A DNA stretch of 1,704 nucleotides from Naegleria gruberi (taxonomy: Eukaryota). The translations under genes and the position numbers were made by a program. Shown here in pieces: positions 1-1,704 of the stretch. A model generated the notes under the pieces. The model was not told where the DNA came from. It did no database searches and saw nothing but the letters and a program-made list of their open reading frames with translations. Every line of letters starts with the position of its first letter. Position 1 is the first letter of the stretch. The stretch lies in assembly GCA_000004985.1 (NCBI GenBank), contig GG739343.1. The stretch is one strand, 5' to 3'.

Positions 1-2
1 CC

Positions 3-26
3 CATTTTTTTTGATTTTTTTGTAAA
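3..26. repeat. Copy A of a direct-repeat motif caT8gaT7gtaaa; the - strand reads TTTACAAAAAAATCAAAAAAAATG
   Basis: Identical to 1117..1139 apart from one extra T in the second T-run. On the - strand it ends in ATG (5..3) followed by GG at the window edge. Confidence 0.85.
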
Positions 27-50
27 TTAATGGATTCTAATTGGAAGGGT

Positions 51-245
51 TCATTGTAAATTGCATCCTGTGAGTGGATAAAACCCCATTCGATAATCCC
101 AATAATCAATACCATTGTCATCAGGTAGAGCAACACAACAAGTAGGTTCAAAACCTTGAAATGCTTCCATTAAAGTTCTTTTCACAATATTTTCACTTTC
201 AGGTTTGTGAAAATGAAAAAATCGTCCAAAGTGAAATATATCCAC
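51..245 (-). CDS. Downstream (C-terminal side) segment, +1 frame relative to 247..777; listed in the ORF track as a 64-aa GTG-initiated ORF
   Basis: The frame opens at 251 (after TAA 254..252), only 5 nt before the TAA (249..247) that ends the 247..777 frame. It reads (VN)VDIFHFGRFFHFHKPESENIVKRTLMEAFQGFEPTCCVALPDDNGIDYWDYRMGFYPLTGCNLQ and ends at TGA 53..51. If TGA is sense it continues (C)TLPIRIH to TAA 29..27. The first codon in the ORF track is GTG, not ATG, so an independent start is unlikely. Confidence 0.35.
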   Translation of the reverse strand: MDIFHFGRFFHFHKPESENIVKRTLMEAFQGFEPTCCVALPDDNGIDYWDYRMGFYPLTGCNLQ

Positions 246-246
246 A

Positions 247-777
247 TTAACTTATCCTTATAATAAGGTTTTTCAGTTTTTTTATCCAATCACTTATTTC
301 GTAAAATGAAAAGGAGTAAACTTCCAAATCATTCAGAATCTTGTGAAAAATTTGACAATCTGTCATTTCCTCAGTTCCAGGCCATTTGAAAGGTCTTACA
401 TGGTTAACATATGAGTGAATAGTTCTTGCAGCAAAATAATAAGAGAATTTGGCCATTTGATGAGGAGTTGGATCCAACTCATTGTTAAACTTGATTCGAA
501 CATCAATTAACTTGCAAGTTTCAGAAAAATTCTTCTCACATTTTTCTCCTTTAATTCTTGTTTGGAATAATTGTGAAAGTTCATTCACAAATCTTGATTT
601 CCCAACTCCTTCCTCGCCTTGAACAATCAGAACCGTTCCAGTATCTAAAGTTTTTAATATTTTCCAGATCACTATTGCTAAACGAAGTAAATAAATAATT
701 TTCAATCCAATTAAATGGTAAGGTGAATTGACTTTTGGATTTTTAAAGTTCTGGGAACACTTGTTTGATGATATCAT
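247..777 (-). CDS. P-loop NTPase segment (Walker A GEEGVGKS; STAND/NACHT-like or KAP-like); the central frame of a gene that is split over several frames
   Basis: ORF track gives 176 aa, ATG at 777..775, TAA at 249..247. A hydrophobic strand followed by a glycine-rich loop, TGTVLIVQGEEGVGKSRFVNELSQ, is a textbook Walker A (GxxxxGKS) context of the kind found in NACHT/STAND and KAP NTPases. I could not recognise a Walker B (hhhhDE) motif downstream. The protein-like reading continues in other frames upstream and downstream, so this ORF is probably not the whole gene. Confidence 0.6.
   Translation of the reverse strand: MISSNKCSQNFKNPKVNSPYHLIGLKIIYLLRLAIVIWKILKTLDTGTVLIVQGEEGVGKSRFVNELSQLFQTRIKGEKCEKNFSETCKLIDVRIKFNNELDPTPHQMAKFSYYFAARTIHSYVNHVRPFKWPGTEEMTDCQIFHKILNDLEVYSFSFYEISDWIKKLKNLIIRIS
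595..618 (-). other. Walker A / P-loop motif GEEGVGKS (codons ggc gag gaa gga gtt ggg aaa tca)
   Basis: Direct translation of the - strand, residues 54-61 of the 247..777 ORF. Confidence 0.8.
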
Positions 778-988
778 AAGTGTCTAATCTTTCATAAGCT
801 TCAAGAACAATATGAACAATCCTATTGACAAACTTTCCATCGACATCATATTGTTCCAAACCATCAATTTGATTGCCAAATTCCTTTCTTAATACGGAAA
901 TCAGATAGTTCCTATCCCACTCTGAATAATTCCAATAACAAAGATTGTTGACTATAGTCTGTAACTTCTTCTTTACATATTGGCTTAT
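746..988 (-). CDS. Upstream (N-terminal side) segment of the same NTPase gene, in the frame one step behind 247..777; no ATG in this frame
   Basis: The - strand frame with codon starts congruent to 1 mod 3 is open from after TGA (991..989) to TAA (745..743), 81 codons. It reads ISQYVKKKLQTIVNNLCYWNYSEWDRNYLISVLRKEFGNQIDGLEQYDVDGKFVNRIVHIVLEAYERLDTYDIIKQVFPEL. The composition is hydrophilic and protein-like. It overlaps the start of the 247..777 frame by 12 codons. It is absent from the ORF track because it lacks an ATG/GTG and its longest TTG-initiated piece is short. If TGA is a sense codon the frame stays open up to TAA at 1087..1085. Confidence 0.35.
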
Positions 989-1116
989 TCACCAGAAGAA
1001 AACATATCTGTAATTTACAATAACAAGTTTGAATCCTCTTCAATTAAAGTTTAATATGATTTTTGATATATTTGAAAAAAAATTTTAAGGTTTGGAAAAT
1101 TTGAATATTCTTGAGA

Positions 1117-1139
1117 CATTTTTTTTGATTTTTTGTAAA
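1117..1139. repeat. Copy B of the direct-repeat motif caT8gaT6gtaaa; the - strand reads TTTACAAAAAATCAAAAAAAATG
   Basis: It overlaps the left arm of the inverted repeat. On the - strand it ends in ATG 1119..1117, the mirrored actin start. Confidence 0.85.
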
Positions 1140-1158
1140 ACTGTTCATTGTTCCTCAG

Positions 1159-1179
1159 AAATTACAAAATTAAAAAAAA
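1159..1179 (+). promoter_or_regulatory. Start context aaATTACAAAATTAAAAAAAAA immediately 5' of the actin ATG; TTACAAAA at 1162..1169
   Basis: This is the third occurrence of TTACAAAA + T + A-run + ATG in the window. The other two are on the - strand at 1139..1117 and 26..3. That makes it a candidate core promoter or initiator element. No Shine-Dalgarno-like purine tract of the GGAGG type is present. Confidence 0.4.
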
Positions 1180-1704
1180 ATGTCTCAAGAATATTCAGCG
1201 ATCGTGTTTGATAATGGCTCTGGCTCCATTAAAGCAGGTTTTTCAGGATGTGAGAATCCACAAGTGGTTTTTCCATCACTCATTGCTTCTCCTTTAAAAT
1301 CCAAAGAATCTGAAAATATCAAAGAAATATACCTTGTGGGAGATGAAGCTAAAATTGACAGTAGAAAGAATGTTAGAATGGTCAGATATCCAATAGAACA
1401 TGGAGTAGTGACGAATTGGGAGGGGATGGAACAGATTTGGCGTCATGTTTTTAGTCAATTACAGGTGGATTGTGAAAATCATCCTGTTTTATTGACTCAA
1501 CCTCCTTGTAATCCAAAACAAAATAGAGAAAAGATGACTGAAATAATGTTCGAAACATTTAGAATACCATCCATGTATGTTTCTATTCCTGCTGTATTGT
1601 CCTTGTTTGCAACTGGGAGGACAACTGGAATAGTTTTAGATTCTGGAGATGGTGTGACGAATATTGTTCCAATTTTTGAATCACATGCTTTAGAATATGC
1701 TGTT
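1180..1704 (+). CDS. Actin-family protein (divergent actin or actin-related protein); 5' end complete, 3' end truncated by the window edge
   Basis: Seen in sequence: ATG at 1180..1182 is preceded by in-frame TAA at 1171..1173, so it is the first start. 175 codons stay open to the last base of the window. The translation [23 protein letters not shown]...[18 protein letters not shown]...[27 protein letters not shown]...[30 protein letters not shown] carries the canonical actin-fold motifs: phosphate-1 DNGSG (1210..1224), YPIEHG, NREKMTxIMFETF and phosphate-2 DSGDGV (1639..1653). Established knowledge: these blocks are diagnostic of actin/Arp. The region matching the actin DNase-I binding loop is replaced by [14 protein letters not shown]. 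Confidence 0.85.

Follow-up and report, generated by a model that had tools for sequence, protein, structure and literature searches.

Giardia, Trichomonas, and Entamoeba are well-known examples of organisms with compact promoters that lack a TATA box, are centred on an initiator and yield very short leaders. In Giardia lamblia, an AT-rich initiator of the AATTAAAAA type spans the transcription start site, with leaders of 1–14 nt and promoters that are reportedly shorter than about 70 bp, and in Trichomonas vaginalis the initiator reads TCA+1YW and is bound by IBP39. Poly(dA:dT) tracts, in turn, exclude nucleosomes at promoters in yeast, Dictyostelium, and Plasmodium. For Naegleria, our search of the literature on promoters, transcription start sites, and leaders found no paper defining a core promoter. 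In a preprint that scores 2,282 eukaryotic genomes for the strength of the start context at positions -6 to -1, Naegleria lovaniensis is listed with those that have the highest index (10.64898/2026.06.25.734688); the index spans these 6 positions only, the bases behind it are unstated in the text, and it is silent on the TTACAAAA box considered below. Compact initiator promoters are already known, as are A-rich start contexts, which for Naegleria are visible in this published index.

The stretch of DNA analysed here (the window) makes up an entire unplaced scaffold of Naegleria gruberi, 1,704 bp in length, with a G+C content of 22–36%. An earlier note on this DNA had pointed to 3 copies of TTACAAAA, each with an A-run and then an ATG after it, and had taken them for a candidate initiator or promoter element. 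All 3 copies are present, and the features of the window are as follows.

25..3, minus strand: copy A, TTACAAAAAAATCAAAAAAAATG, ending in the ATG (5..3) of a metallophosphoesterase-like gene that exits the left end of the window
51..1116, minus strand: P-loop NTPase pseudogene, frameshifted and truncated, in three reading frames, with a Walker A motif GEEGVGKS at 618..595
1102..1197: inverted repeat with arms 1102–1138 and 1162–1197 and a 23-nt spacer, 1139–1161
1138..1117, minus strand: copy B, TTACAAAAAATCAAAAAAAATG, with its ATG at 1119..1117
1162..1182, plus strand: copy C, TTACAAAATTAAAAAAAAATG, whose last 3 bases (1180..1182) are the actin-family start codon
1180..1704, plus strand: N-terminal 175 codons of a divergent actin-family gene, NAEGRDRAFT_77005 (partial), open to the scaffold end

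The TTACAAAA box occurs exactly 3 times in the window, at 25..18 (minus strand), 1138..1131 (minus strand), and 1162..1169 (plus strand), against 0.36 occurrences expected from dinucleotide shuffles, and none of 200 shuffles reached 3. In each copy, the box lies about 12–14 nt upstream of a run of 7 or 8 A and the ATG, and occupies roughly positions -21 to -12. Of the 65 ATGs on both strands of the window, 3 are preceded by at least 6 A, and these are exactly copies A, B, and C. The wording of the earlier note, in which TTACAAAA is followed by one or two T, then 7–9 A, then ATG, describes copy C literally (TTACAAAA-TT-A8-ATG) but not copies A (TTACAAAA-AAA-TC-A7-ATG) and B (TTACAAAA-AA-TC-A7-ATG), which carry additional A residues and TC in place of the T or TT. 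Copy C also holds the only AATTAAAAA of the window, at 1168–1176, where copies A and B have ATCAAAAAAA. A separate 9-mer, ACAATGAAC, is found upstream of copies A and B (57..49 and 1154..1146, both on the minus strand); it stands at -52 from the ATG of copy A, where it overlaps the stop codon of the pseudogene, and at -34 from that of copy B, and with such unequal distances it may be there by chance.

Copies A and C precede real gene starts, whereas copy B precedes the remnant of the P-loop pseudogene. The ATG of copy C opens a reading frame that matches the Pfam Actin family at 8.6e-56 and aligns to residues 1–175 of solved actins. The product is 100% identical to NAEGRDRAFT_77005 (partial) and about 54%–59% identical to all other actins, cellular or viral; its only relatives in IMG/VR are 2 proteins of 54% and 41% identity, the former being the actin of a giant-virus metagenome-assembled genome (MAG; L039). 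Two further actin matches on long contigs were considered as Naegleria DNA and proved to come from unrelated eukaryotes. The actin carries an unusual segment after its first phosphate-binding loop. Among the N. gruberi genes that are silent and methylated, cytoskeleton functions have been reported to be over-represented (PMC12344493).

The gene behind copy A could be followed beyond the window on a metagenome contig, L001 (ENA ERZ929261, run ERR1078381; 1–1264), which is 96% identical to window positions 1..885 and on which the motif of copy A is 100% conserved. There, the same ATG opens an open reading frame (ORF) of at least 128 codons (880–1263), MGQAES...DVH...GD...GNHE, that encodes a calcineurin-like metallophosphoesterase (Pfam Metallophos, 6.6e-05, above the curated cut-off). 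The MGQAES start, which we take to fit an N-terminus of the N-myristoylation type, would be a point in favour of this ATG being the real start. The earlier note had judged 2 of the 3 copies to sit in front of plausible gene starts, and this is borne out by the alignment of the actin from residue 1 and by the metallophosphoesterase frame opened by the ATG at 5..3. The ATG of copy B opens only 22 codons (MSQEYSNFPNLKIFFQIYQKSY, then a stop) and is thus a relic start. A comparison based on shared 5-residue words found no homologues of the phosphoesterase, IMG/VR held no relatives of either the P-loop protein or the phosphoesterase, and the metagenome and prokaryotic-genome collections held none of the actin, P-loop, or phosphoesterase proteins.

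The P-loop gene occupies the minus strand from 1116 to 51 and is spread across 3 frames. A HMMER scan of 1.8 billion representative sequences returned 3 matches, namely 2 pieces of L001 and the Willaertia magna protein KAL9646466.1, which is 830 aa long, has no Pfam domain, and is encoded at positions 10001–12638 of L041, our comparison locus from this sister genus (JBEGDK010000129.1:91025-113662; 22.6 kb, chromosomal). Residues 254–374 of the Willaertia protein match window positions 657..277 and residues 380–393 continue in another frame, while its C-terminal 440 aa have no counterpart in the window. Some of the frame breaks are common to the window and L001 and others are private indels (13 nt, 4 nt, and about 7 nt); the common breaks mean that the gene died before the 2 copies or strains split. 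The P-loop gene is a frameshifted and truncated pseudogene on a rearranged scaffold, and its family is an orphan one, seemingly restricted to heterolobosean amoebae. Several other accounts of this strand were considered and rejected. An alternative genetic code or introns would not rescue the gene, since the breaks require +1 or +2 shifts, which lie beyond stop read-through, no GT donor occurs from the ATG at 1119 up to the first stop, and the Willaertia homologue aligns across 2 frames; and an identity as a D5-like viral helicase found no Pfam or PHROG match at the cut-off. As an orphan, rearranged fragment carrying a dead gene, the scaffold may be unrepresentative of normal genes.

The Willaertia locus shows how gene starts look in ordinary chromosomal surroundings. 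It holds 14 called host genes, including formin, kinase, IFT57, TELO2, and P450 genes around the P-loop homologue, and 13 of their starts fall within the locus. Convergent and tandem neighbours lie 17–150 nt apart, and the head-to-head pairs are separated by spacers of 42 nt and 80 nt, with an A-run before each ATG. At least 4 A directly precede the ATG at 8 of the 13 annotated starts, compared with 1.3% of 800 ATGs (P ~1e-12). The runs usually follow a T, as in TTAAAAAAATG, and all 4 ATGs of the locus that are preceded by at least 6 A are annotated starts. Taken together with the N. lovaniensis index, this enrichment identifies the T + A-run + ATG half of the motif as a lineage-wide and highly specific gene-start signature, and an A-run before an ATG as a mark that, in this lineage, singles out true starts very specifically. 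The earlier note had likened such rigid start contexts to those of genomes with very short or absent leaders, whether giant-virus, protist, or archaeal; the protist part of that comparison agrees with a host of this kind, with ATGs 60 nt apart, and with the short spacers of Willaertia, while we see no sign that the scaffold came from a giant virus or an archaeon.

The reach of the TTACAAAA box is a different matter. The box is missing from all 13 Willaertia starts, and TTACAA was found upstream of none; ACAA occurs upstream of 7 (P ~0.02, uncorrected), a post hoc count that is not significant after multiple testing. We also scanned IMG/VR and metagenomes with a strict pattern, TTACAAAAN{0,3}TYAAAAAAAATG. 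In IMG/VR, the pattern matched 35 contigs, once each, and its base-for-base reversal 8, an excess of about 4-fold, probably because AT-rich viruses in general favour A-rich sequence ahead of an ATG. In metagenomes, at least 120 contigs were matched, again once each. An ORF of at least 80 codons follows the match in 26 of 121 cases among the metagenome matches listed and in a minority of the 35 from IMG/VR, and we found no reuse of the motif at other ORFs of the same contig, either on the 35 IMG/VR contigs or on the metagenome contigs among the matches listed. These matches are mostly attributable to chance in AT-rich DNA. Six AT-rich metagenome contigs (L051, L083, L094, L100, L121, and L150) share an identical TTACAAAAGCTTCAAAAAAAATG before ORFs beginning MSR, MTR, or MDR, then ..KEGV..EVNCETDFVAKN. 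We take these ORFs to be bacterial elongation factor Ts (EF-Ts) genes, entered at what is presumably an internal start or a domain boundary, and TTACAAAAGCTTCAAAAAAAATG resembles the motif but belongs to conserved bacterial sequence.

The 3 copies, which the earlier note had counted as independent evidence, are kin. Copies B and C lie in an inverted repeat in which 1102–1133 matches 1166–1197 over 32 nt at 94% identity, with arms of up to 37 nt when the TTACAAAA boxes are included. The repeat takes in the entire 60-nt head-to-head intergenic region and, beyond it, the ATG and 15 coding nucleotides, which read ATGTCTCAAGAATATTCA, or MSQEYS, on both strands. Because it reaches into coding sequence, which promoter function does not need, we conclude that B and C are related by inverted duplication. 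Copies A and B, in turn, share an exact 18-nt direct repeat (3–20 = 1117–1134) and are equal at 22 of 23 positions across the unit, with unrelated flanks on both sides; that their likeness is limited to this unit of 22–23 nt favours a self-contained module over a long duplication. Copy B is thus a mosaic: its promoter half resembles copy A, and the part from the A-run or ATG onward resembles copy C. As there are only 3 copies and these are related by duplication, TTACAAAA could recur for historical reasons and not through selection, and the original observation is real but over-counted.

Such kinship lends itself to an explanation that we hold to be a minority possibility, if a serious one: the A-run alone would be functional, as an ordinary, Kozak-like context for translation shared throughout Naegleria and Willaertia, and TTACAAAA would merely have been copied locally on a repeat-like scaffold. 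The 15 coding nucleotides in the B/C repeat, unexplained by promoter function, would follow from duplication, as would the mosaic make-up of copy B and its position in front of a dead ORF, and the frameshifts and truncation of the P-loop gene show that the region has been rearranged. The disparity at Willaertia starts between TTACAA (0/13) and the A-run (8/13) points the same way, as does the strong genus-level context at -6 to -1 already reported (10.64898/2026.06.25.734688). Yet a random duplication is unlikely to span precisely the stretch from TTTAC to ATG that copies A and B have in common, copy C differs from both inside the unit and nevertheless keeps TTACAAAA intact, and spacers of 45–60 nt imply that some promoter signal resides within or very near these bases. 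We think it very improbable that the inverted repeat is itself the functional unit, whether as a hairpin or cruciform, as the terminal inverted repeats of a miniature transposon, as a miRNA-like precursor, or as a recombination hotspot. Its arms of 32–37 nt and 94% identity do yield, as single-stranded RNA, a strong predicted hairpin (-39.2 kcal/mol, z = -9.9), and several Rfam miRNA-precursor models match positions 1100–1200 weakly, but the predicted fold is enough to explain these matches, all of which score far under gathering (18–36 against 58–230 bits; 35.5 bits against a threshold of 94 for the best). Moreover, no target-site duplication was found flanking the repeat, its right arm encodes the actual start of the actin protein, copy A stands apart from any inverted repeat as a third copy, and divergent transcripts that each start within their own arm would not hold both arms.

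It would surprise us greatly if the scaffold were an endogenised viral fragment with a promoter of the giant-virus (NCLDV) type and with its actin (a "viractin"), P-loop NTPase, and phosphoesterase all of viral ancestry. A rigid A/T-rich motif immediately 5' of the ATG does resemble the promoter style of NCLDVs and poxviruses, for which the late TAAATG, the intermediate core + TAAA, and the mimivirus AAAATTGA serve as models, and giant-virus MAGs encode actins, L039 among them at 54% identity. The forward motif also outnumbers its reversal in IMG/VR (35 vs 8), and the vaccinia intermediate G8R promoter, which reads ...AATTTACAAAAATTTAAAATG and contains TTTACAAAAATTTAAAATG, is strikingly like copies A and C (PMC12917281). 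On the other side, all 35 IMG/VR matches are single and most have no ORF after them, the actin is no nearer to viral (54%) than to cellular (55%–59%) actins, the P-loop protein and phosphoesterase have no relatives in IMG/VR, and the sole P-loop homologue is a Willaertia chromosomal gene among host genes. The consensus motifs are missing at the 3 starts, where there is no viral gene context either: in the window, AAAATTGA occurs once and TAAATG twice, all within coding sequence, and AAATATTT is absent. As for G8R, its core reportedly spans -26 to -13; counting back from TAAA in the printed sequence, TTACAAAA falls in the spacer between core and initiator, outside the core element, and we therefore treat the vaccinia resemblance as coincidence.

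We judge the chances to be about even that the motif serves a gene-dense heterolobosean nuclear genome as a compact module of initiator and leader, and the promoter or initiator interpretation of the earlier note is, to that extent, plausible and partly supported. Only 60 nt separate the head-to-head ATGs, and the spacer that contains copy A measures 45 nt; unless the transcription signals are inside the neighbouring genes, they must be in or next to these bases. In the module as we picture it, T(C/T) + A7-8 + ATG would be the general half, supplying a short, A-rich, unstructured leader and the start-codon context, and TTACAAAA, 12–14 nt further upstream, would be the candidate initiator. We infer that RNA polymerase II would start at the CA of TTACA, a pyrimidine–purine step common to the 3 copies, which would give an almost pure A/U leader of 15–19 nt, and the flanking A/T tracts may keep the 45- to 60-nt spacers free of nucleosomes. 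The module would drive the actin-like gene from copy C and the metallophosphoesterase gene from copy A. Copy B would be a relic of inverted duplication or recombination, in which a promoter half of type A was joined, within the A-run and ATG, to the first 15 coding nucleotides of the actin gene, in front of the dead P-loop gene.

A bolder claim, that TTACAAAA-N2-5-T(C/T)-A7-8-ATG forms a position-locked cassette of initiator and leader at Naegleria nuclear genes throughout the genome, and would be the first defined heterolobosean core promoter, seems to us unlikely. If it were true, the mosaic copy B would exemplify the exchange of cassettes between genes by recombination within A-runs. Should the TTACAAAA box prove general, it would offer a handle for fixing gene and transcription starts in Naegleria, including the pathogen N. 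fowleri, and would make it possible to design minimal promoters for transfecting these amoebae, which is still difficult.

Compared with the systems described above, the compact module that we favour shares with the yeast-like, A-rich start context of heteroloboseans (AAAAAAATG) the A residues from -1 to -7 or -8, present in all 3 copies. The A7-8 and T7-8 tracts that flank the 60-nt bidirectional spacer recall the poly(dA:dT) tracts of other promoters, but here the tract always lies right against the ATG, and this fixed placement suggests that it acts in the leader or in initiation rather than in chromatin alone. With Trichomonas, the module would have in common an initiator-centred, TATA-less core (TATAAA is absent from the whole window) and short leaders, and a TCA stands 8 nt ahead of the ATG in copies A and B; however, AA rather than Y-W follows this TCA, and copy C has TTA. 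The likeness to Giardia lies in an A/T-rich element that abuts the ATG, in extremely short intergenic promoters, and in copy C, which contains AATTAAAAA exactly, whereas copies A and B carry ATCAAAAAAA, the host is a heterolobosean rather than a diplomonad, and TTACAAAA has no known Giardia counterpart. A genome-wide cassette, if real, would work much as the ultra-compact promoters known from Giardia and Trichomonas do, although its lineage is free-living and rich in transcription factors.
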